The translations under genes and the position numbers were made by a program. Below, piece by piece: positions 1,717-48,256 of a stretch of DNA of 64,000 nt. The notes below the pieces were generated by a model. It saw only the letters and a list, made by a program, of their open reading frames with translations, had not been told where the DNA came from and ran no database searches. Each line of letters starts with the position of its first letter. The stretch's first letter is position 1. This DNA is from Candidatus Levybacteria bacterium CG2_30_37_29 (lineage in GTDB: Bacteria > Patescibacteriota > Microgenomatia > Levybacterales > GWA1-39-11): NCBI GenBank assembly GCA_001873215.1, contig MNYS01000008.1, forward strand, positions 2,657 through 66,656, in the 5' to 3' direction.

Positions 1717-2928
1717 TTATTTTTTTGTTTCACTTGGAGCCGGTGTCACGGCAACTTTACCTACAATCTGATTAGTTACTAAATCTCTATAAATTACCCC
1801 CTGAAGTTGCTGCATTTCCCGAAATACGTACCAGCCATCGGATTCAACCGTCCCAACCCCTTTCCAAACATTTTTTAAGTTCGTGTACTGTTCTACCTCA
1901 GGAGATAGAAGAATCGTGGGTACTTTAGTTATTTTATATTTATCAATTAAACTTTTCCCTTCTCCCGATGAAATATCAACAGTTCGTTCAGATAGAATAC
2001 CCACCCCATATCCTTGTTTCAGAATTGGTTTTTGTACTATATCAGCCTTATAACAATCACTGCATGTCGAATCGGTAAGATATAGCAAATCGACCAGCCC
2101 CAAAACTTGATTCTTCTCCAAATCTCTATAGGGTAAAGACAAATTACGTAGTACATACGTTTTGTCCTGTTCAACAGTGCCTATGCTGACCCAGCTAGAT
2201 TTGACACTATCATAGAAATCAATATCAGAGGATAAGAGAAGGGATGGTATTTTGGTAATCTTGTATTGATTAATAAACCTTTGGCCTTCCGATGAATTCC
2301 ACGCAACTTCCTTTTGATCTGTTACATTTACCCCTGCTTTTTTAAGACCTGCTACAGTCAATTTTGGATCAAGACATTGAGTACACGTTGGGTCGGCTAT
2401 AATAGTTGCAGTAATTCTGCCAACCTCTCGCTTACTTTCTGCATCGATAAAAACCGGAGCAACCTTAGTTAAAACAAAAGTATTGTTGATAACTTCACCA
2501 TTATTTTTAACAAAGGTCTCAAGATTGTTTTTTGTTATTTCTCCAGAAACAATATAGGTTGGAATTCTTTTAATGGAGAACTGCTTAACTAAACTACTGC
2601 CTTCTGCGGAATTAAGGCTATATGTTTTTTCCTCTTCGACTTTGACATTTTGTTTCTTGAAATTAGCGACAGCCGTATCGACATCAAAACAGTCCTGACA
2701 GTCAGAAGCAGTAATTTTAGTTATTTTAACAGTGGCAGGACGAGCTGCTTCTTTTGCCACAGCAATATTTTTATTAACTTCAGTAAGCGTTTTTGTAGAA
2801 AAGAGTGCTCCTGTGACAGTTGTAAAAAGTGCGATAGCTAAAATTATCTTTGGCCAAGAGATGTTCAGTTTCTCTCTTTTGATACCTAGCCACGACACTA
2901 TATTAAATATAACTTTTTTCATTTTCAT
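1717..2928 (-). CDS. secreted protein with three tandem thioredoxin-fold repeats, each with a CxxC motif
   Basis: Three ~110-aa repeats carrying CQDC, CTQC and CSDC. Each repeat has a conserved (K/Q)YKITK(I/V)P(S/T)(L/I)LLS segment, and the repeat is also visible at nucleotide level. N-terminal TM anchor. Confidence 0.55.
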   Translation of the reverse strand: MKMKKVIFNIVSWLGIKREKLNISWPKIILAIALFTTVTGALFSTKTLTEVNKNIAVAKEAARPATVKITKITASDCQDCFDVDTAVANFKKQNVKVEEEKTYSLNSAEGSSLVKQFSIKRIPTYIVSGEITKNNLETFVKNNGEVINNTFVLTKVAPVFIDAESKREVGRITATIIADPTCTQCLDPKLTVAGLKKAGVNVTDQKEVAWNSSEGQRFINQYKITKIPSLLLSSDIDFYDSVKSSWVSIGTVEQDKTYVLRNLSLPYRDLEKNQVLGLVDLLYLTDSTCSDCYKADIVQKPILKQGYGVGILSERTVDISSGEGKSLIDKYKITKVPTILLSPEVEQYTNLKNVWKGVGTVESDGWYVFREMQQLQGVIYRDLVTNQIVGKVAVTPAPSETKK

Positions 2929-6057: not shown

Positions 6058-6114
6058 TGTGCCAATTTCAGCTTGCCTGAACTTGGCACTGAAATTACGT
6101 TGTAATTTCAGTGG
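6058..6114. repeat. tRNA 3'-flank repeat/hairpin, short version
   Basis: gtgccaatttcagcttgcctgaac followed by ggcactgaaatt-acgttgt-aatttcagtgg. The 3' arm of the hairpin overlaps the last nucleotides of tRNA-Ala. Related to the elements at 30233-30324 and 30584-30626. Confidence 0.5.
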
Positions 6115-6183
6115 ACCGGAAGAGATTCGAACTCTCAACCCCTTCCATGCCATGGAAGTACGCTACCGTTGCGCCACCGGCCC
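6112..6183 (-). tRNA. tRNA-Ala(GGC)
   Basis: GGGCCGG acceptor with a G3:U70 pair, anticodon loop AUGGCAU, GAGUUCGAAUCUC T-arm, discriminator A. Confidence 0.8.
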
Positions 6184-6299: not shown

Positions 6300-7529
6300 A
6301 TGCTTATGGAAATTCCCCTTGCAGAGAGAATGCGACCTGTAACATTATCACAATTTGTCGGGCAAGATCACCTTGCAGGAATTGGCGGGCCAATAAGAAG
6401 CATGATTGAAAATAGGAAAGTCACTTCAATGATTTTATGGGGTCCTCCGGGAGTCGGCAAAACAACTCTTGCTCATATAATCGCTTCGTCAATTGACGCA
6501 AATTTTGTTTTTTTCTCAGCCGTAACAAGCGGAGTAGAGGATGTACGAAAAGTAATTAAACAAGCAAGGATAGACATTGAAAACAACAAGAAGCAAACAG
6601 TGCTTTTTGTCGACGAAATTCATAGATTTAATAAATCTCAACAAGACGGTTTTTTACCTTACGTTGAAGACGGAACAATAATTTTAATTGGTGCAACAAC
6701 TGAAAATCCGGGATTTCGCGTCAACGCGCCTCTTATTTCAAGAAGCCAAGTTTATAAATTGTCAGAACTTGCAGACGTGGATATAAAGAAAGTAGTCGTG
6801 CGAGCAATTAAATTTTATAAAAAAAATAAATGGGACAAAAATGCTCTGGATCATATCATAAAACAAGCAAACGGAGACGCCAGAAATGCGATAAATGCCA
6901 TAGAACTCGCCGCATCAATTTCAAAAAGCGTAACTCTTGAAATTGCTGAAGTCGCCGTTCAGCAAAAAGCAATTTATTATGACAAAAAAGGGGATTTTCA
7001 TTACGATACGATTTCCGCATTCATTAAATCGATGCGGGGAGGCAATCCTGACGCAACTCTTCACTATTTGGCGCGTATGATAAAGTCAGGCGAAGACCCG
7101 CTTTTTATCGCACGAAGAATGGTTATCTTTGCGAGTGAAGATATAGGCAACGCTCAACCTACAGCACTTGTTGTTGCGACGAGCTGCATGCAAGCCGTAC
7201 ATATGATAGGAATGCCTGAATCCCAGCTTATTTTAGCGCAAACAGCAACCTATCTTGCAACTGCAAAAAAATCTATTGCTTCAACAAGCGGAATTTTTGA
7301 AGCTCTATCTGACATAGATGAAACAAGACTTGAGCCTATTCCTTTGCATCTTCGAAACGCAGCAAACAAAGTTATGAAACAATTTGACTACGGAAAAGGA
7401 CATGTACGCTATCCGTGGCTTGTTGAGAAAGAAACCAAACAAAGAGTAGAACAGGCCATGCCTGCCGGCAGGCAGGAATATATGCCAAAAAATCTAAAGG
7501 GGAAAGTTTACTACAAGCGAGATTGGTAA
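6300..7529 (+). CDS. rarA: replication-associated recombination protein A (AAA+ ATPase)
   Basis: Walker A GPPGVGKTT, Walker B LFVDEIHRFNK, and the MgsA C-terminal region. Carries an 18-nt palindrome insertion near the 3' end (see findings). Confidence 0.85.
   Translation: MLMEIPLAERMRPVTLSQFVGQDHLAGIGGPIRSMIENRKVTSMILWGPPGVGKTTLAHIIASSIDANFVFFSAVTSGVEDVRKVIKQARIDIENNKKQTVLFVDEIHRFNKSQQDGFLPYVEDGTIILIGATTENPGFRVNAPLISRSQVYKLSELADVDIKKVVVRAIKFYKKNKWDKNALDHIIKQANGDARNAINAIELAASISKSVTLEIAEVAVQQKAIYYDKKGDFHYDTISAFIKSMRGGNPDATLHYLARMIKSGEDPLFIARRMVIFASEDIGNAQPTALVVATSCMQAVHMIGMPESQLILAQTATYLATAKKSIASTSGIFEALSDIDETRLEPIPLHLRNAANKVMKQFDYGKGHVRYPWLVEKETKQRVEQAMPAGRQEYMPKNLKGKVYYKRDW
7478..7495. repeat. 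GC-rich palindrome TGCCTGCCGGCAGGCAGG (copy 1 of 5), inside rarA
   Basis: Perfect palindrome encoding MPAGRQ in frame. Identical core to the copies at 29680, 31804, 32226 and 33744. Confidence 0.8.
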
Positions 7530-29593: not shown

Positions 29594-29623
29594 CAATAAA
29601 CATTTTGAGCGGGAGACGGGAAT

Positions 29624-29655
29624 CGCTCAATTTCTACGAAATTGCGCGCTTTTTT
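29624..29655 (+). terminator. Rho-independent terminator
   Basis: CGCTCAATTTC-tac-GAAATTGCGCG stem followed by CTTTTTT, 30 nt after the stop at 29593. Confidence 0.55.
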
Positions 29656-29679
29656 CCAACAAAAAGAGCGAACCCGCTA

Positions 29680-29697
29680 CCTGCCTGCCGGCAGGCA
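29680..29697. repeat. GC-rich palindrome CCTGCCTGCCGGCAGGCA (copy 2 of 5)
   Basis: Located 27 nt downstream of the tRNA-Gly 3' end, minus-strand sense, before an AGCGGGUUCGCU hairpin with a U-run. Confidence 0.8.
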
Positions 29698-29724
29698 TCT
29701 TCCTTGACCTGCCCGCTAATACTG

Positions 29725-29796
<72 letters not shown>

Positions 29797-29941
29797 ATAA
29801 GCTCTGCAGGCGGGCAAGGAAGCATTCTTAGGCGCACAGTGAAACGAGCACCGCAAGCTCTTGCTTACCGGTGAATTACTCCCGCTGAAAAAACTTGTTT
29901 TTTCAGCACCAGGTTCTCGCAGTGCTCGAAACTGGCGCAGT

Positions 29942-30196
29942 CTATGTTTTTAAACTCATTACTAATTTTAATTTTCTTTCTCTTGGCCAACTTTTAATTT
30001 CCATTTCGCGTTTCAATGCCTGTGACTTTGTTTTATATTCTTCTGAATGAACTAATTCAACAGGCAACTTACCTTTTATTGATTTTGCGCCCTGCTTTCC
30101 AAAATTATGTTGCCACAATCTGTTTTTTATATTTAATGTATATCCTGTATAAAAAGAGCCGTCACTACATTCGACAATATAAACATAATGCTTCAT
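29942..30196 (-). CDS. small GIY-YIG nuclease-family protein (YhbQ/UPF0213-like)
   Basis: The YVYIVECSDGSFYTGYT…RLWQHN…GAK catalytic motif set fills essentially the whole 84 aa. Confidence 0.75.
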   Translation of the reverse strand: MKHYVYIVECSDGSFYTGYTLNIKNRLWQHNFGKQGAKSIKGKLPVELVHSEEYKTKSQALKREMEIKSWPRERKLKLVMSLKT

Positions 30197-30232
30197 TGTT
30201 CTATCTTAGTTATAAGCTCTGCGAAAATCTAG

Positions 30233-30324
30233 CGTGCCAATTTCAACCTGCCTGAACATAGACTGTGCCACATACGAACAACGTGAGTACGTGGCACTGA
30301 AATTTTAGTAAAAATTTCAGTGCC
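30233..30324. repeat. tRNA 3'-flank repeat with two hairpins
   Basis: The 43-nt core at 30241-30283 is identical to 30584-30626. It is followed by the GGCACTGAAATTTT-agta-AAAATTTCAGTGCC hairpin, whose 3' arm overlaps the tRNA-Phe 3' end. Related to 6058-6114. Confidence 0.6.
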
Positions 30325-30393
30325 GAGACCAAGAATTGCACTCGGATAGCCTGTTCTTCAGACAGGTGCCTTGACTACCTCGGCCATCTCGGC
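30321..30393 (-). tRNA. tRNA-Phe(GAA)-like
   Basis: GCCGAGA/UCUCGGC acceptor and anticodon loop CUGAAGA. The D-stem is 3 bp with a Ser/Leu-like D-loop (GAGGUAGUCAA), and the T-loop UGCAAUU is non-canonical. Discriminator A. Confidence 0.55.
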
Positions 30394-30403
30394 AAAAAAA
30401 TAC

Positions 30404-30454
30404 TATATTCGATTGCGAATTCAATGCAATCTCAGACAGTGATTGCATTATATC
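30404..30454. repeat. 51-nt IS-target/IS-end-like repeat (intact copy)
   Basis: TATATTCGATTGCGAATTCAATGCAATCTCAGACAGTGATTGCATTATATC. The first 31 nt are 29/31 identical to 47105-47135, and the tail matches 48255-48271. Confidence 0.55.
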
Positions 30455-30461
30455 AAATGTG

Positions 30462-30534
30462 TGGGCGGTGCAAGACTTGAACTCGCGACATCTTCGGTGT
30501 AAACGAAGCGCTCTACCAGCTGAGCTAACCGCCC
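30462..30534 (-). tRNA. tRNA-Val(TAC)
   Basis: GGGCGGU acceptor, anticodon loop UUUACAC, GCGAGUUCAAGUCUUGC T-arm. Confidence 0.85.
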
Positions 30535-30583
30535 TTTAAACTTTCCTTAGCACAAACCAACATTTGAACAAACCATGTGTTAG

Positions 30584-30626
30584 TTTCAACCTGCCTGAAC
30601 ATAGACTGTGCCACATACGAACAACG
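30584..30626. repeat. tRNA 3'-flank repeat core (second copy)
   Basis: 43/43 nt identical to 30241-30283, ending 10 nt before the tRNA-Leu(GAG) 3' end. Confidence 0.6.
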
Positions 30627-30635
30627 GGAGAAATG

Positions 30636-30722
30636 TGCCGAGGACAGGACTTGAACCTGCACGTCTTATTTAAGGACACAAGAACCTCAATCTTGCGTGT
30701 ATACCAATTTCACCACCTCGGC
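30636..30722 (-). tRNA. tRNA-Leu(GAG), long variable arm
   Basis: GCCGAGG acceptor, anticodon loop UUGAGGU, 17-nt variable arm, GCAGGUUCAAGUCCUGU T-arm. Confidence 0.8.
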
Positions 30723-31782: not shown

Positions 31783-31874
31783 TGCCCGAGAGAGGACTCG
31801 AACCCTGCCTGCCGGCAGGCAGGCTCCACACCATTGCTGGTACAGCGTTCTGAACGCTGCTTGTCTACCTGCCA
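31783..31874 (-). pseudogene. tRNA-Leu(CAG) 3' three-quarter fragment with a 20-nt palindrome in the T-stem
   Basis: D-arm, CAGCG-UUCAGAA-CGCUG anticodon arm, long variable arm and CUCGGGC-A acceptor 3' strand are all present. Removing CCTGCCTGCCGGCAGGCAGG (31804-31823) restores a GGAGG/CCUCU T-stem. There is no matching 5' acceptor strand locally. Confidence 0.6.
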
Positions 31875-31881
31875 AAGCATG

Positions 31882-31962
31882 TGCCAGGAGGGGGACTCGA
31901 ACCCCCACATCTTGCGATACACGGTTCTGAACCGTGCTTGTCTACCATTTCAACATCCTGGC
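31882..31962 (-). tRNA. tRNA-Leu(CAG), intact
   Basis: GCCAGGA/UCCUGGC acceptor, anticodon loop UUCAGAA, 13-nt variable arm, GGGGGUUCGAGUCCCCC T-arm. Begins 4 nt after the GIY-YIG stop. Confidence 0.8.
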
Positions 31963-31966
31963 TTAT

Positions 31967-32212
31967 TTATGTTGCGCTATTTATCTCTTGTATTATCTCA
32001 CGACCAAACCCTGATTTAAAGAACTTCTCGAGTTTAATTGCGTCCCCTAGCGACACACAGATTTCTACATGAATAAGCTTAAATGGTGCTAAATGTTTTA
32101 TGGAAGCTGTTTTATTATTGTTGTGTTCGGAAAGTCTTCTTAAGATATTATTCGTATAACCTTTATAAAAAACGTCCTTTTTTTGACTTTTAATAACATA
32201 TACGTAATACAT
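31967..32212 (-). CDS. small GIY-YIG nuclease-family protein (second copy)
   Basis: The YVYVIKSQKKDVFYKGYT…RRLSEHN motif set fills essentially the whole 81 aa. The start ATG directly abuts the tRNA 5' fragment. Confidence 0.75.
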   Translation of the reverse strand: MYYVYVIKSQKKDVFYKGYTNNILRRLSEHNNNKTASIKHLAPFKLIHVEICVSLGDAIKLEKFFKSGFGREIIQEINSAT

Positions 32213-32213
32213 A

Positions 32214-32261
32214 TGCGTGTCTACCCCTGCCTGCCGGCAGGCAGGATTCCAACACTCGGGC
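32214..32261 (-). repeat. tRNA 5' fragment (acceptor plus D-arm) with palindrome in the D-loop
   Basis: GCCCGAG-UG-UUG-GAAUCC[UGCCUGCCGGCAGGCAGG]GGUAGA-CAC-GCAU. The acceptor strand is the exact complement of the 3' strand of the fragment at 31783. Near-identical to the plus-strand unit at 33727-33773. Confidence 0.6.
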
Positions 32262-33726: not shown

Positions 33727-33773
33727 GCCCGGGTGGTGAAATTCTGCCTGCCGGCAGGCAGGAGTATACACGC
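33727..33773 (+). repeat. tRNA 5' fragment with palindrome in the D-loop (plus-strand copy)
   Basis: GCCCGGG-UG-GUG-AAAUUC[UGCCUGCCGGCAGGCAGG]AGUAUA-CAC-GCAU, followed by CGCAA-GACC-UUGCG and a U-run. No 3' half is present. Confidence 0.6.
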
Positions 33774-33825
33774 ATGGTTTAAGAACTTGCTCTCAAGTTC
33801 GCAAGACCTTGCGACCTTAATTTTT

Positions 33826-33906
33826 GCGGATGTGGTGAAATGGTATACACGATAGGTTTAGGACCTATTGCCGTAAGGCGTGGAGGTTCAAGTCCTCTCA
33901 TCCGCA
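33826..33906 (+). tRNA. tRNA-Leu(TAG), long variable arm
   Basis: GCGGAUG acceptor, anticodon loop UUUAGGA, variable arm UGCCGUAAGGCGU, GGAGGUUCAAGUCCUCU T-arm. Confidence 0.85.
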
Positions 33907-33953
33907 CAAATACAGCTTTACTTATAGGCTCATTTCCAGTATAATATCTCTCT

Positions 33954-35671: not shown

Positions 35672-35697
35672 GGCCTCCCACACGGGAGGTTTTTTTA
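35672..35697 (+). terminator. Rho-independent terminator (repeat family copy A)
   Basis: GGCCUCCC-ACAC-GGGAGG followed by 7 U. The same module recurs at 39994-40019. Confidence 0.55.
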
Positions 35698-36038: not shown

Positions 36039-36213
36039 GTGGAATAAAAATTCAGCAACAAACCATATAGCTTTATTATTTATAATTTGCTAGAATCAAA
36101 GCTACGTACGGGCTCATAAGATTATTAGGATAATCTTGAGTGCCCTCATTTCATTCGGGCTCATAGCCATGCCCCGCTTCGCGGGGTCAGTTGGAAATCA
36201 ACTTTTGAAAAAT

Positions 36214-36290
36214 GGACGATTAGCTCAGTTGGTTAGAGCGTTGCATTGACATTGCAAAGGTCACAGGTTCAAATCCTGTATCGTCCACCA
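36214..36290 (+). tRNA. tRNA-Val(GAC), CCA encoded
   Basis: GGACGAU/AUCGUCC acceptor, anticodon loop UUGACAU, ACAGGUUCAAAUCCUGU T-arm, then ACCA. Confidence 0.85.
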
Positions 36291-36303
36291 TTTTCCAAAA
36301 GGC

Positions 36304-36395
36304 AGAGCGTTGCATTGACACCCGCCCGCAACGCTAAAGCGTAGCTTTGCGGGCGTGGTTGCAAAGGTAATCCCGATTCAATCGGGATTGGGCCC
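36304..36395 (+). other. partial tandem copy of tRNA-Val with a 38-nt hairpin at anticodon-loop position 37/38
   Basis: AGAGCGUUGCAUUGACA (identical to tRNA positions 21-37), then a 38-nt GC-rich hairpin at 36321-36358, then UUGCAAAGG (identical to positions 38-46). A divergent T-arm UCCCG-AUUCAAU-CGGGA and UUGGGCC follow. There is no 5' acceptor or D-stem. Confidence 0.5.
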
Positions 36396-36416
36396 ACAAT
36401 TTGTTATACTAATGTT

Positions 36417-39993: not shown

Positions 39994-40019
39994 AGCCTCC
40001 CACACGGGAGGTTTTTTTT
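39994..40019 (+). terminator. Rho-independent terminator (repeat family copy B)
   Basis: AGCCUCCC-ACAC-GGGAGG followed by 8 U, after rplT. An upstream GGGAGG at 39954 could pair alternatively. Confidence 0.55.
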
Positions 40020-47021: not shown

Positions 47022-47135
47022 AATGCGGTTGAGGGATGAAGTGCGGTATCTTAGTCTTCTTGCATGAAACCTACCAGGGCGCCTGTAATTTTGCATATTT
47101 CTATTATATTCGCTTGCGAATTCAATGCAAGCTCA

Positions 47136-48256
47136 TGTAATGACTTTATAATTATAGTGTTTTATTGTACTTGTTTCAAATTCTGTCATGGACATATAGA
47201 TACCGTAACACTTCCTCTTTTCTTTTCTTGTAGTATCCTAACATAATCTGCCGGTCTTTTGTAACCTAGTGAATGATGGTATCGTAGGTTGTTGTACTTG
47301 TAGTTAAATATTTTGCAATGTTCGTTAATCATATCAAGGTCATCAAGCAGGTCATATTGATAGTTAAAATATTCGTACTCGGCTGTCTGGTGGAGACGCT
47401 CAACTCTCCCATTTTGTTTGGGACAATGGGGATCTGTAAAGAAATGGGGGATATTCCAGGAGATAATCTCTTTGTGAAATTCAAACAGATATTCTGAGCC
47501 ATTATCAGTATTAATTGCTTGTATGGGGAAAGGGAAATAATCTCTCACTTTGCAAATGAAGTCTTTTCCTGAGACAGAAGATATTGTTTTGTAACAATGG
47601 ATAAAGGCGTATCGGCTCTTGCAGTCAATTGCCGAGAATATATAGAATTTCTTTCCTAATACGTAGAAGTATTTAGTATCAACTTGGACAAGAGAGCCGA
47701 GATTCTTCTCTCGTAGCTCAATTGCAGCCTTGATGCGAGCGATCTTGAAGTTTCTGTGTTTTTTGAGACGCTTCTTGTGCTGGATATTTAAAAGCTTTGG
47801 ATCTCTGTTGATTACCTTCTGAATTGTGGTTGTTCCACAAGTTACTCCCTCGTTTTTTAGTTCTGCCTGTATCTCATACTTTGATTTTTCAATATCACCT
47901 TCACGAATACTTTTAATTCTGTCAATTATAAACTGTGCTGTTGTCATTTCTCTTGTTTTCTTTGGTCTCCGGGTTTTTAAATCATCCTCAAGTCCTAAAA
48001 GCCCTAATTTACTAAACCGCTTAAGCCACCTGTAAAACACATCTGGAGATAAAGCGAAATGGCGAAGAGTTAAACGAACCTTTCCTCCATGAAAATGGTA
48101 CCAATCAATCCATATAAGTCTTTCTTGTGCCTTTTTTGACAACCTCACATCTCTCACCTGCGCCCAAGGAACAATTCTGTATGCTCGCATATACGAGCCA
48201 TTGTACCGTCCTTTCAAAATGTATCAAGTGTAACGGGATGTATCGCGTCCTAGACA
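47136..48256. mobile_element. IS481-family insertion sequence (boundaries ±30 nt)
   Basis: Single DDE transposase ORF. Terminal TGTAATGAC…GACAATTCA imperfect inverted ends. Flanks correspond to the two halves of the 51-nt repeat that is intact at 30404-30454. Confidence 0.55.
47186..48217 (-). CDS. IS481-family DDE transposase
   Basis: N-terminal HTH and an rve integrase core with D(VQVDTKYF), D(INTDNGSEY) and E(PKQNGRVERLH). Confidence 0.75.
   Translation of the reverse strand: MKGRYNGSYMRAYRIVPWAQVRDVRLSKKAQERLIWIDWYHFHGGKVRLTLRHFALSPDVFYRWLKRFSKLGLLGLEDDLKTRRPKKTREMTTAQFIIDRIKSIREGDIEKSKYEIQAELKNEGVTCGTTTIQKVINRDPKLLNIQHKKRLKKHRNFKIARIKAAIELREKNLGSLVQVDTKYFYVLGKKFYIFSAIDCKSRYAFIHCYKTISSVSGKDFICKVRDYFPFPIQAINTDNGSEYLFEFHKEIISWNIPHFFTDPHCPKQNGRVERLHQTAEYEYFNYQYDLLDDLDMINEHCKIFNYKYNNLRYHHSLGYKRPADYVRILQEKKRGSVTVSICP

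Follow-up and report, generated by a model that had tools for sequence, protein, structure and literature searches.

Introduction

Transcripts punctuated by tRNAs are familiar from mitochondria, and REP sequences as well as 5′ stem-loop stabilisers protect the ends of bacterial mRNAs. SegB of phage T4, a free-standing GIY-YIG homing endonuclease encoded in the phage tRNA cluster, recognises the T-psi-C arm and drags flanking tRNA genes with it (PMC2330249). REPs also work in RNA, as stabilising stem-loops (PMC3116915, PMC2817692, PMC3337134). The bacterial UPF0213/Slx1-like family of GIY-YIG proteins, among whose members are YhbQ of E. coli and YazA of B. subtilis, has no function assigned, and GIY-YIG nucleases of the Slx1 type are structure-specific (PMC1564403, PMC7017083). 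Here we describe a gene of this type in a stretch of 64,000 nucleotides (nt) from Candidatus Levybacteria bacterium CG2_30_37_29 (contig MNYS01000008.1, positions 2,657 to 66,656), referred to below as the window. The gene lies between a tRNA-Phe and a tRNA-Gly gene, in a cassette that also contains hairpins and one copy of an exact 43-nt repeat. An earlier note on this DNA had drawn attention to the repeat and the hairpins and had proposed that they were tRNA 3′-processing or terminator modules, or else direct repeats left by an element integrating at tRNA 3′ ends.

With a probability of about 0.6, we read the repeat and the hairpins as boundary modules, and the debris of such modules, of a tRNA-operon GIY-YIG cassette, whose units have been copied at the DNA level and whose hairpins are kept by their position in the tRNA precursor. 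The repeat itself is ordinary, being a recent local duplication of element debris; the interest lies in a conserved, hairpin-framed cassette with solo units and in remodelled tRNA genes. The 43-nt repeat matters only as the trace that leads to the cassette.

A conserved GIY-YIG cassette apparently framed by inverted double hairpins

The tRNA genes concerned are all on the minus strand (ARAGORN and Rfam), so that the elements sit 3′ of tRNA-Leu(GAG), tRNA-Phe and tRNA-Ala. In the direction of transcription the order is tRNA-Leu(GAG) (30722 to 30635), repeat copy 2, tRNA-Val(TAC) (30534 to 30461), tRNA-Phe(GAA) (30393 to 30321), an outer hairpin termed H1 (30324 to 30293), repeat copy 1, an open reading frame (ORF) of 84 amino acids (aa) (30196 to 29942), more hairpins, and tRNA-Gly(GCC). 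The features of the cassette and its borders are as follows:

30321-30393, minus strand: tRNA-Phe(GAA); CCA is not encoded, and an extended −10-like motif (TTTGATATAAT) lies just upstream
30293-30324, minus strand: outer hairpin H1 (GGCACTGAAATTTT / AAAATTTCAGTGCC), which takes in the final 4 nt of tRNA-Phe and has its orthologs in the covarying H1 hairpins of relatives
30203-30233, minus strand: resident inner leader hairpin, degenerate (GCTAGATTTTCGCAGAGCTTATAACTAAGAT), the ortholog of GTGCTAGGTTTTCGCAAGCTCAAAACTAGCAC in relatives and a weak match to leader model R1
29942-30196, minus strand: GIY-YIG nuclease gene, 84 aa (PF01541), of the stand-alone UPF0213/Slx1-like type
29884-29945, minus strand: resident trailer, with stop codon, H2′ (GCGCCAG..CTGGTGC) and H3 (GCTGAAAAAAC..GTTTTTTCAGC), scoring 69.8 bits with trailer model R2
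29606-29885, minus strand: old tRNA-Gly(GCC), the cassette border in relatives, here in five pieces with four insertions

The 84-aa protein consists of the catalytic domain only, with no C-terminal DNA-binding domain. It matched PDB entries 1zg2 (E 6e-17 over residues 1-82) and 1ywl (E 1.4e-14). The catalytic residues Y6, Y16, R26 and E64 are invariant, and the nuclease is likely to be active. No NCBIfam model matches either this protein or the second GIY-YIG protein of the window, which is described below.

The order tRNA-Phe(GAA), GIY-YIG gene, tRNA-Gly(GCC) was found in nine distinct relative sequences, at 61-84% protein identity. The relatives comprise ten Phe/Gly loci, two of which (L016 and L017) are the same sequence, and all were retrieved through the nuclease protein. 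L024 has a degenerate tRNA-Phe, and its short contig stops within sequence that reads like the start of tRNA-Gly; in L019 a homolog of the nuclease lies between tRNA-Arg and tRNA-Lys instead. The cassette measures about 0.4 kb and is wedged exactly between tRNA-Phe and tRNA-Gly, with the nuclease as its sole gene (82-87 codons in relatives). In the relatives, the Shine-Dalgarno sequence and ATG come 5-9 nt after the leader hairpins, which leaves no room for a promoter, and the extended −10-like motif before tRNA-Phe is conserved. From this conserved motif, together with the lack of promoter space before the ORF, we infer that tRNA-Phe, the ORF and tRNA-Gly are co-transcribed.

The hairpins at the two ends of the cassette have a regular anatomy in relatives. 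The leader begins with H1, whose first bases are the GGCA of the tRNA plus C, and continues with an inner hairpin, GTGCYAGgTTTT..AAAACTAGCAC, whose 5′ arm GTGCY is also the end of H1. The trailer consists of the stop codon, H2′ (GCGCCAS..STGGYGC) and H3, the last GC of H3 being the first two bases of tRNA-Gly; in the window, the last GC of the resident H3 forms the first two bases of the old tRNA-Gly. In an alignment of the relatives only, 9 of the 10 pairs of the leader H1 had compensatory changes; 93% of cells were paired, compared with 28-52% in slid controls, and none of 500 shuffles was as good. Compensatory changes were seen at 11 of 20 pairs in the trailer.

Covariance models of the leader (R1) and the trailer (R2) were built from the relatives only. 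The leader model R1 matched the window trailer on the opposite strand (29884-29938, plus strand, 29.3 bits, with a rough E of 2.6e-5), and it also matched the trailers of L015, L021, L024, L025 and L023 on the opposite strand (E 3e-7 to 3e-3). Plain sequence comparison of leader and trailer gave z-scores of 8.0 in L021, 9.3 in L023 and 4.3 in L012. Since the leader model recognises the trailer in reverse complement, leader and trailer form terminal inverted repeats (TIRs). The nuclease gene is thus framed by two double-hairpin units of about 55-60 nt in inverted orientation, a unit being an AT-rich outer hairpin plus an inner hairpin GTGCYAR..YTRGCAC.

The 43-nt repeat as a probable recent duplication

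Parts of the element occur at three sites in the window, at 3 of its 11 tRNAs: site A between tRNA-Phe and the nuclease gene, site B between tRNA-Leu(GAG) and tRNA-Val, and site C after tRNA-Ala. The features at these sites are:

30635-30722, minus strand: tRNA-Leu(GAG)
30535-30634, minus strand: spacer of 100 nt between tRNA-Leu(GAG) and tRNA-Val(TAC), containing copy 2 and a second trailer-like scrap
30584-30626, no strand: copy 2 of the 43-nt repeat (site B), truncated inside the H2 loop
30461-30534, minus strand: tRNA-Val(TAC)
30258-30321, plus strand: trailer-like unit, inverted and complete, with ATAG stop, ACT, an H2 stem GTGCCAC..GTGGCAC and an H3-type hairpin that is H1
30231-30292, minus strand: insertion m2 + m3 of about 62 nt, between H1 and the resident leader
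30241-30283, no strand: copy 1 of the 43-nt repeat (site A), on the plus strand TTTCAACCTGCCTGAAC then ATAGACTGTGCCACATACGAACAACG
30234-30257, minus strand: module m3 (GTTCAGGCAGGTTGAAATTGGCAC), the loop and 3′ arm of the inner hairpin, 22/24 identical to site C
6111-6183, minus strand: tRNA-Ala(GGC)
6059-6117, minus strand: site C, where tRNA-Ala(GGC) is immediately followed by a solo double-hairpin unit made up of an H1-type hairpin and a complete inner hairpin (GTGCCAAgTTCAG..CTGAAaTTGGCAC), with no GIY-YIG ORF

The two copies of the core are identical, as first reported, with 0 mismatches between 30241-30283 and 30584-30626, and they do flank tRNA-Val and tRNA-Phe: the 343-bp segment between them consists of those two tRNA genes. 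No further copy with up to 3 mismatches was present in the 64-kb window (0.00 expected in shuffles). The similarity is wider than the core, extending over 54 nt at 93% identity (30234-30287 versus 30577-30630). Within the core, TTTCAACCTGCCTGAAC is part of the inner-hairpin module m3, and ATAGACTGTGCCACATACGAACAACG is the stop codon plus the first half of the inverted trailer hairpin (m2). The core is thereby recognisable as a chimera, in which 17 nt of inner hairpin are joined to 26 nt of inverted trailer (stop codon and half of H2). The same chimeric junction, between CTGAAC and ATAGACT, is present in both copies, so that either one copy gave rise to the other or a single rearranged precursor gave rise to both.

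By exact match, the window belongs to a Patescibacteria metagenome-assembled genome (GCA_002793055.1) and to many near-identical assemblies, ten of which were compared for variation within the species. The suggestion that the repeats might delimit a strain-variable segment was not borne out, all ten assemblies having the same arrangement. Seven single nucleotide polymorphism (SNP) sites were found in 1.2 kb; five of them are in the two copies or at most 5 nt from them, and their positions in copy 1 and copy 2 are not the same. This clustering, at positions that differ between the copies, indicates that no constraint on the core is visible and that its copies are not being homogenised. Copy 2 forms neither a hairpin nor any other secondary structure and folds worse than shuffled sequence (z = +1.9); the corresponding z-scores of sites A and C are −3.7 and −5.0. 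The core is absent from all six related loci, from Microgenomates-like Patescibacteria, that were aligned or inspected. The 43-nt repeat is a recent, species-specific duplication and is most likely without a function of its own.

Other readings of the core were set aside. It was compared with a decayed tRNA 3′ half (GCAGGTTGAAA against GCAGGTTCAAG), a reading dropped when the stretch proved to align with the conserved leader hairpin of relatives. No consensus promoter lies in or beside the core, and a group I intron or a riboswitch had no support. The only Rfam matches in the window were tRNAs, at the gathering threshold as well as at E<=1.

Origin of the modules at sites A, B and C

Site A matched the trailer model R2 from end to end, including ATAGACT with the stop codon (56.5 bits, E 7e-13). 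It is 82% identical (28/34, z 12.9) to the reverse complement of the L012 trailer, which is closer to it than the resident trailer. The insertion of about 62 nt is absent from L012, L013, L015, L021/L025, L023 and L024. In L012 and L013 tRNA-Leu(GAG) and tRNA-Val are 2-4 nt apart, which marks the 100-nt spacer at site B as a lineage-specific insertion; its trailer-like scrap (30553-30575) has a 13-mer, ACATTTGAACAAA, in common with the L012 trailer.

Site C matched the whole leader model R1 on the minus strand (31.9 bits, E 6e-6) and R2 on the plus strand (33.4 bits), the similar scores in both models and both orientations reflecting a unit that is nearly palindromic. Its predicted fold is a pair of neighbouring hairpins. 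No unit is present at the orthologous tRNA-Ala locus of L026, where the RarA neighbour is 82% identical. The earlier note had described a shorter relative of the core at this tRNA-Ala, and the relationship is real insofar as 6059-6082 matches 30234-30257 at 92% over 24 nt (3 matches, 0 expected). The middle of the core, about 33 nt, is absent, and what the two have in common is confined to the hairpin and the TTTCA(A/G)C(C/T)TGCCTGAAC part.

The hairpins make use of the tRNA ends in the way that had been proposed. At site A, the 14-bp stem takes in 30321-30324 (GGCA), the last three acceptor bases and the discriminator of tRNA-Phe; at site C, the 12-bp stem (6087-6113) includes the terminal CA of tRNA-Ala; and neither hairpin is followed by a T-run. 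The hairpin that was noticed beside tRNA-Phe is, on the alignment with relatives, the conserved outer hairpin H1 of the cassette's left unit. The GTGCY arm of the leader has two possible partners, the tRNA end GGCAC and the inner-hairpin end RGCAC. For site C, the predicted fold gives this shared arm to the inner hairpin, and the overlap of H1 with the tRNA may therefore be a by-product of mimicry. The H1 hairpins of sites A and C have CACTGAAATT in common; the orthologous H1 hairpins of relatives differ.

Further rearrangements were seen around tRNA-Phe. The tRNA-Phe/leader junction is an insertion hotspot in other lineages too: in L018 (1230-1500) the 3′ end of tRNA-Phe (ACTCACATCCTCAGCAC) is duplicated about 95 nt downstream, before H1, and a 29-nt tandem duplication follows. 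L016 (1290-1380) has the promoter and first bases of tRNA-Phe in tandem (GCCAAGATAAGCAAAGCTTGACTTAGCAAGTAT, twice), upstream of an intact tRNA-Phe. In the window, the promoter-like region upstream of tRNA-Phe (30401-30451) recurs as a 51-nt repeat with 78% identity at 47102-47152.

Solo units in other organisms

The degenerate pattern TTCARGCARGYTGAAAYTRRCAC was scanned in large collections of genome contigs, metagenome contigs and viral contigs. There was one match in the genome contigs and one in the metagenome contigs, together L011 and L022, the source species not being among the matches; the viral contigs gave 0 pattern matches and no GIY-YIG relative. The view that L011 and L022 were chance matches was overturned by their leader model scores. 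L011 has an intergenic solo unit (31 bits) with no adjacent tRNA, in which the inner hairpin is almost identical to that of site C and the outer hairpin has covaried. The weaker relative in L022 (922-991, minus strand, 20.5 bits) lies in frame inside a membrane-protein ORF that reads through it. The solo units are double hairpins and are not bounded by TIRs. The only sequence repeated at both ends is CAC or GCAC, which is part of the stem. There are three sites in the window and two in other organisms. The L011 contig is labelled Gammaproteobacteria, and its gene content looks Patescibacteria-like; it also has an HNH-type endonuclease-like ORF of 132 aa (2481-2879, minus strand) that starts directly after a tRNA-Thr(TGT).

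Split, nested and palindrome-bearing tRNA genes in the window

The old tRNA-Gly(GCC) at the distal border of the cassette is interrupted by 36 nt in the D arm, by 107 nt in the anticodon loop, by a 16-nt palindrome in the variable loop and by 45 nt in the T loop. The 107-nt insertion carries a new tRNA, so that a functional tRNA-Gly(GCC) (29724-29796) is nested in the anticodon loop of the old one. When spliced together, the old pieces give a tRNA-Gly call in ARAGORN and match the L012 tRNA-Gly at 72/76 positions, compared with only 53/73 for the nested tRNA.

A second GIY-YIG gene (31967-32212, 40% identical to the first) lies together with a tRNA-Leu(CAG) (31881-31962) inside another tRNA-Leu(CAG), the whole locus occupying 31785-32261 on the minus strand. 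The insertion is bounded by an 8-nt direct repeat, GGTAGACA, and the host gene is called as tRNA-Leu(CAG) by ARAGORN once the insert and two palindromes are removed. This locus looks like a tRNA-gene-targeted insertion with a replacement tRNA. At 36150-36410 (plus strand), a tRNA-Val(GAC) (36214-36290) is nested in the pieces of an older tRNA-Val(GAC), which also has a 38-nt insertion in its anticodon loop and whose spliced pieces are again a tRNA-Val(GAC) by ARAGORN.

A perfect palindrome, (C)CTGCCTGCCGGCAGGCAGG, is present five times (7459-7482, 29678-29701, 31806-31829, 32228-32251 and 33745-33768) and resembles a very small version of the Rickettsia palindromic elements. Three copies lie in disrupted tRNA-like sequences, either in the D loop or ahead of the T arm, and two of these flank the second GIY-YIG gene. 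Another is in frame in the RarA/MgsA gene (6300-7529), where it adds seven residues (QAMPAGR) that are absent from an 82%-identical ortholog. The sequence at 33727-33775 (plus strand) resembles a tRNA-Leu 5′ half with the palindrome in its D loop; it lies just upstream of tRNA-Leu(TAG) (33826-33907) and is 88% complementary to 32213-32261.

Two further observations concern the window at large. Dihydroorotate dehydrogenase (PF01180; 26576-27694, minus strand) is divided between two neighbouring ORFs (142 and 183 aa) in every assembly, and may be a split gene or a pseudogene. Canonical terminators with a GC stem and T7 occur elsewhere in the window (GCCTCCCACACGGGAGGTTTTTTT, identical at 35673-35696 and 39995-40018), and indicate that terminators of the GC-stem and T-tract kind are in use in this organism.

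Discussion

An inverted trailer with a stop codon, solo units at unrelated sites and scraps in the broken tRNA-Gly all fit copying of the units at the DNA level. Could the hairpins instead be a purely RNA-level module, acting in tRNA 3′-trailer processing, stability or termination, with no mobile history and with copies that reflect a common function? In favour of this, compensatory changes have preserved all four hairpins (H1, inner, H2′ and H3), which border the 3′ end of tRNA-Phe and the 5′ end of tRNA-Gly with single-base precision; L013 has retained its leader hairpins although it has no trailer; and the pairing of GTGCY with either GGCAC or RGCAC is a possible switch. Against this, an inverted trailer with a stop codon, as at site A, would be senseless as an RNA signal on the tRNA strand; solo units lie away from tRNAs and inside an ORF; the core, missing from relatives, gathers SNPs; copy 2 is unstructured; and only 3 of the 11 window tRNAs have any part of the element. 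Such a module on its own seems to us an unlikely explanation. Termination in particular does not agree with the absence of a T-tract and the directly adjacent ORF. The H1 stems are AT-rich, nothing terminator-like was found at 30293-30324, 30584-30626 or 6059-6117, and in six relatives the GIY-YIG gene starts 5-9 nt after the hairpins with no promoter room, so that transcription must read through. A transcription unit ending at the element thus appears to be contradicted by the ORF that directly follows it in these six relatives, and the terminator proposal of the earlier note was abandoned. Its proposal of a 3′-processing module is plausible for H1, where 9/10 pairs are compensatory, and not for the 43-nt core, for which the absence from all relatives and the lack of structure in copy 2 leave no plausible RNA role.

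The third proposal, repeats left by an integrating element, holds in the sense that the modules would be remnants of an element's ends, and fails in the sense of attachment-site (att) duplications. Direct repeats beside tRNA 3′ ends, and the acceptor end CTCGGCA in which tRNA-Phe and tRNA-Leu(GAG) both finish, as the note had stated, are what att-type repeats delimiting a variable island would offer. However, the repeat has at most 5 nt (GGCAC or CAC) in common with the tRNA ends, compared with typically at least 15 nt of the tRNA 3′ part; the 343-bp tRNA-Val and tRNA-Phe segment has the same order in L012 and L013, whose loci include tRNA-Leu(GAG) and which both are without the repeat; no integrase is nearby; and the arrangement is identical in 10 assemblies. 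Integration of this type is already contradicted and is scarcely credible. A meaningless local segmental duplication with chance hairpins would account for an exact 43-nt pair that is species-specific and found at two places only, 343 bp apart, and it is true of this last duplication step alone. For the modules it is contradicted, because those of the duplicated piece significantly match models from other species, tRNA-Ala, at a distance of 24 kb, has a related unit, as do other organisms, and H1 is conserved with covariation; as a full account it is very unlikely. A more elaborate possibility is a REPIN/RAYT-like partnership, in which the unit is a non-autonomous mobile repeat and the flanked GIY-YIG enzyme cuts or mobilises it via hairpins or cruciforms, tRNA ends being the preferred targets. 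Inverted hairpin units flank the gene, which is vertically inherited at a fixed site, and further units stand alone both at another place in this genome and in other organisms; the hairpin covariation is as expected for single-stranded recognition, and the sharing of CACTGAAATT by H1 of sites A and C suggests copying within the genome. Slx1-type GIY-YIG enzymes are moreover structure-specific (PMC1564403, PMC7017083). The apparent copy number, in contrast, is low, the 64 kb containing a single solo unit; clear target-site duplications are lacking, the CAC/GCAC repeat belonging to the hairpin; and a GIY-YIG enzyme as transposase is without known precedent. The partnership is on this balance improbable. 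The proposal that a domesticated or selfish Slx1-like GIY-YIG enzyme in the tRNA operon cuts hairpins or cruciforms of the flanking units, and so drives their spread into or next to tRNA genes, is speculative and rather doubtful.

Several points weigh against the boundary modules of a tRNA-operon cassette, copied at the DNA level, that we favour. The count of one solo unit in 64 kb, which for the source genome covers the window only, is far below that of REP-like families. The likeness of leader and trailer in sequence is weak in L015 and L024 (z about 1.5), the E-values of the covariance models are rough, coming from a shortened calibration, and the leader hairpins that L013 keeps without a trailer imply that the inverted pair is not indispensable. 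The inverted trailer of site A matches the resident trailer at an identity of no more than about 70-75%. Finally, the cassette is at the same site in all ten Phe/Gly loci, none of them empty, in a sample biased by its choice through the nuclease; mobility of the ORF-bearing cassette is hypothetical.

A sequence of events can be proposed on these grounds. A rearranged piece, comprising an inverted trailer with its stop codon and part of an inner hairpin, would have been inserted between H1 and the resident leader, and a 54-nt piece of this insertion would then have been copied into the spacer between tRNA-Leu(GAG) and tRNA-Val, giving the exact 43-nt repeat. Propagation and rearrangement of the units probably take place at the DNA level, most plausibly through template switching or recombination among palindromic inverted units, a process that the structure-specific nuclease which they flank may initiate. 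In the precursor of tRNA-Phe, the ORF and tRNA-Gly, the conserved hairpins would abut the RNase Z and RNase P sites and would owe their persistence to this position, since cleavage would leave them as stem-loops that protect the ends of the freed nuclease mRNA.

GIY-YIG proteins of the UPF0213/Slx1-like type occur widely among bacteria and archaea, with no role assigned to them so far. In the present case, a gene of this type is fixed between two tRNA genes across a lineage of ultra-small bacteria and framed by covarying double hairpins. This gives two testable options: either tRNA processing enzymes free a nuclease mRNA capped by hairpins, or the hairpins are themselves a substrate of the nuclease, which remodels tRNA loci. 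A REPIN/RAYT-like partnership, if true, would provide a first function for the large UPF0213 family and a new class of bacterial mobile element with a GIY-YIG nuclease, and the same process would explain why so many hairpins and palindromes have been inserted into tRNA genes of the window and why nested replacement tRNAs of the same anticodon rescue them. The cassette and its units also offer a possible explanation for the unusually messy tRNA loci of these genomes, whether split, nested or replaced, which affect tRNA annotation and estimates of genome completeness.

Comparison with known systems

Literature searches brought up no account of hairpin repeats framing GIY-YIG genes in tRNA operons, and no report linking the UPF0213 family to tRNA-operon cassettes or flanking hairpin repeats. 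Within UPF0213, the cassette protein is a minimal GIY-YIG domain without the C-terminal Asn region. The cassette resembles tRNA-punctuated transcripts in that its ORF is bounded by tRNAs to the base, stable hairpins lie immediately within the cleavage sites of RNase Z and RNase P and, in relatives, there is no room for a promoter of its own. However, a tRNA punctuation model leaves the inverted trailer fragments, the solo units away from tRNAs and the unstructured copy 2 unexplained.

The solo units and debris are also reminiscent of MITEs (miniature transposable elements with inverted repeats) and of the solo TIRs of insertion sequences (IS), being short, non-coding and derived from the ends of an element that carries a gene between TIRs, with lineage-specific insertions. 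Site A, read on the plus strand, resembles a cassette from which the ORF has been deleted between the inner hairpin and the stop codon, in the manner of MITE internal deletions. Unlike in MITEs, there is no recognised transposase and no clear target-site duplication, and each end is a pair of hairpins under structural selection.

With REP/REPIN-RAYT systems (PMC3116915, PMC2817692, PMC3337134) the cassette shares a single gene with palindromic units inverted around it, solo units elsewhere, a hairpin structure that is maintained and a flanked gene that is inherited vertically. It differs in its enzyme, which is GIY-YIG and not a Y1 HUH (IS200/IS605-like) transposase, and in its units, which are AT-rich double hairpins without the GTAG/CGTC tag and are tied to tRNA gene ends. 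REP families moreover number tens to hundreds per genome, compared with one solo unit in the 64-kb window.

With SegB the cassette shares a GIY-YIG gene lodged between tRNA genes. The second GIY-YIG gene, which lies with a tRNA-Leu(CAG) inside a disrupted tRNA-Leu(CAG), follows the SegB pattern, as expected of tRNA-targeted homing with a replacement tRNA. However, SegB is a two-domain phage protein of about 220 aa from the homing endonuclease/UvrC branch and is without double-hairpin inverted repeats, whereas the cassette protein is a bare, 84-aa Slx1-like domain encoded on a bacterial chromosome. Unlike homing genes, the ORF showed no presence/absence polymorphism at the ten Phe/Gly loci retrieved through its protein. 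The element is therefore filed under neither SegB-type homing nor REP/RAYT, since it combines some, and not all, of the defining features of both.

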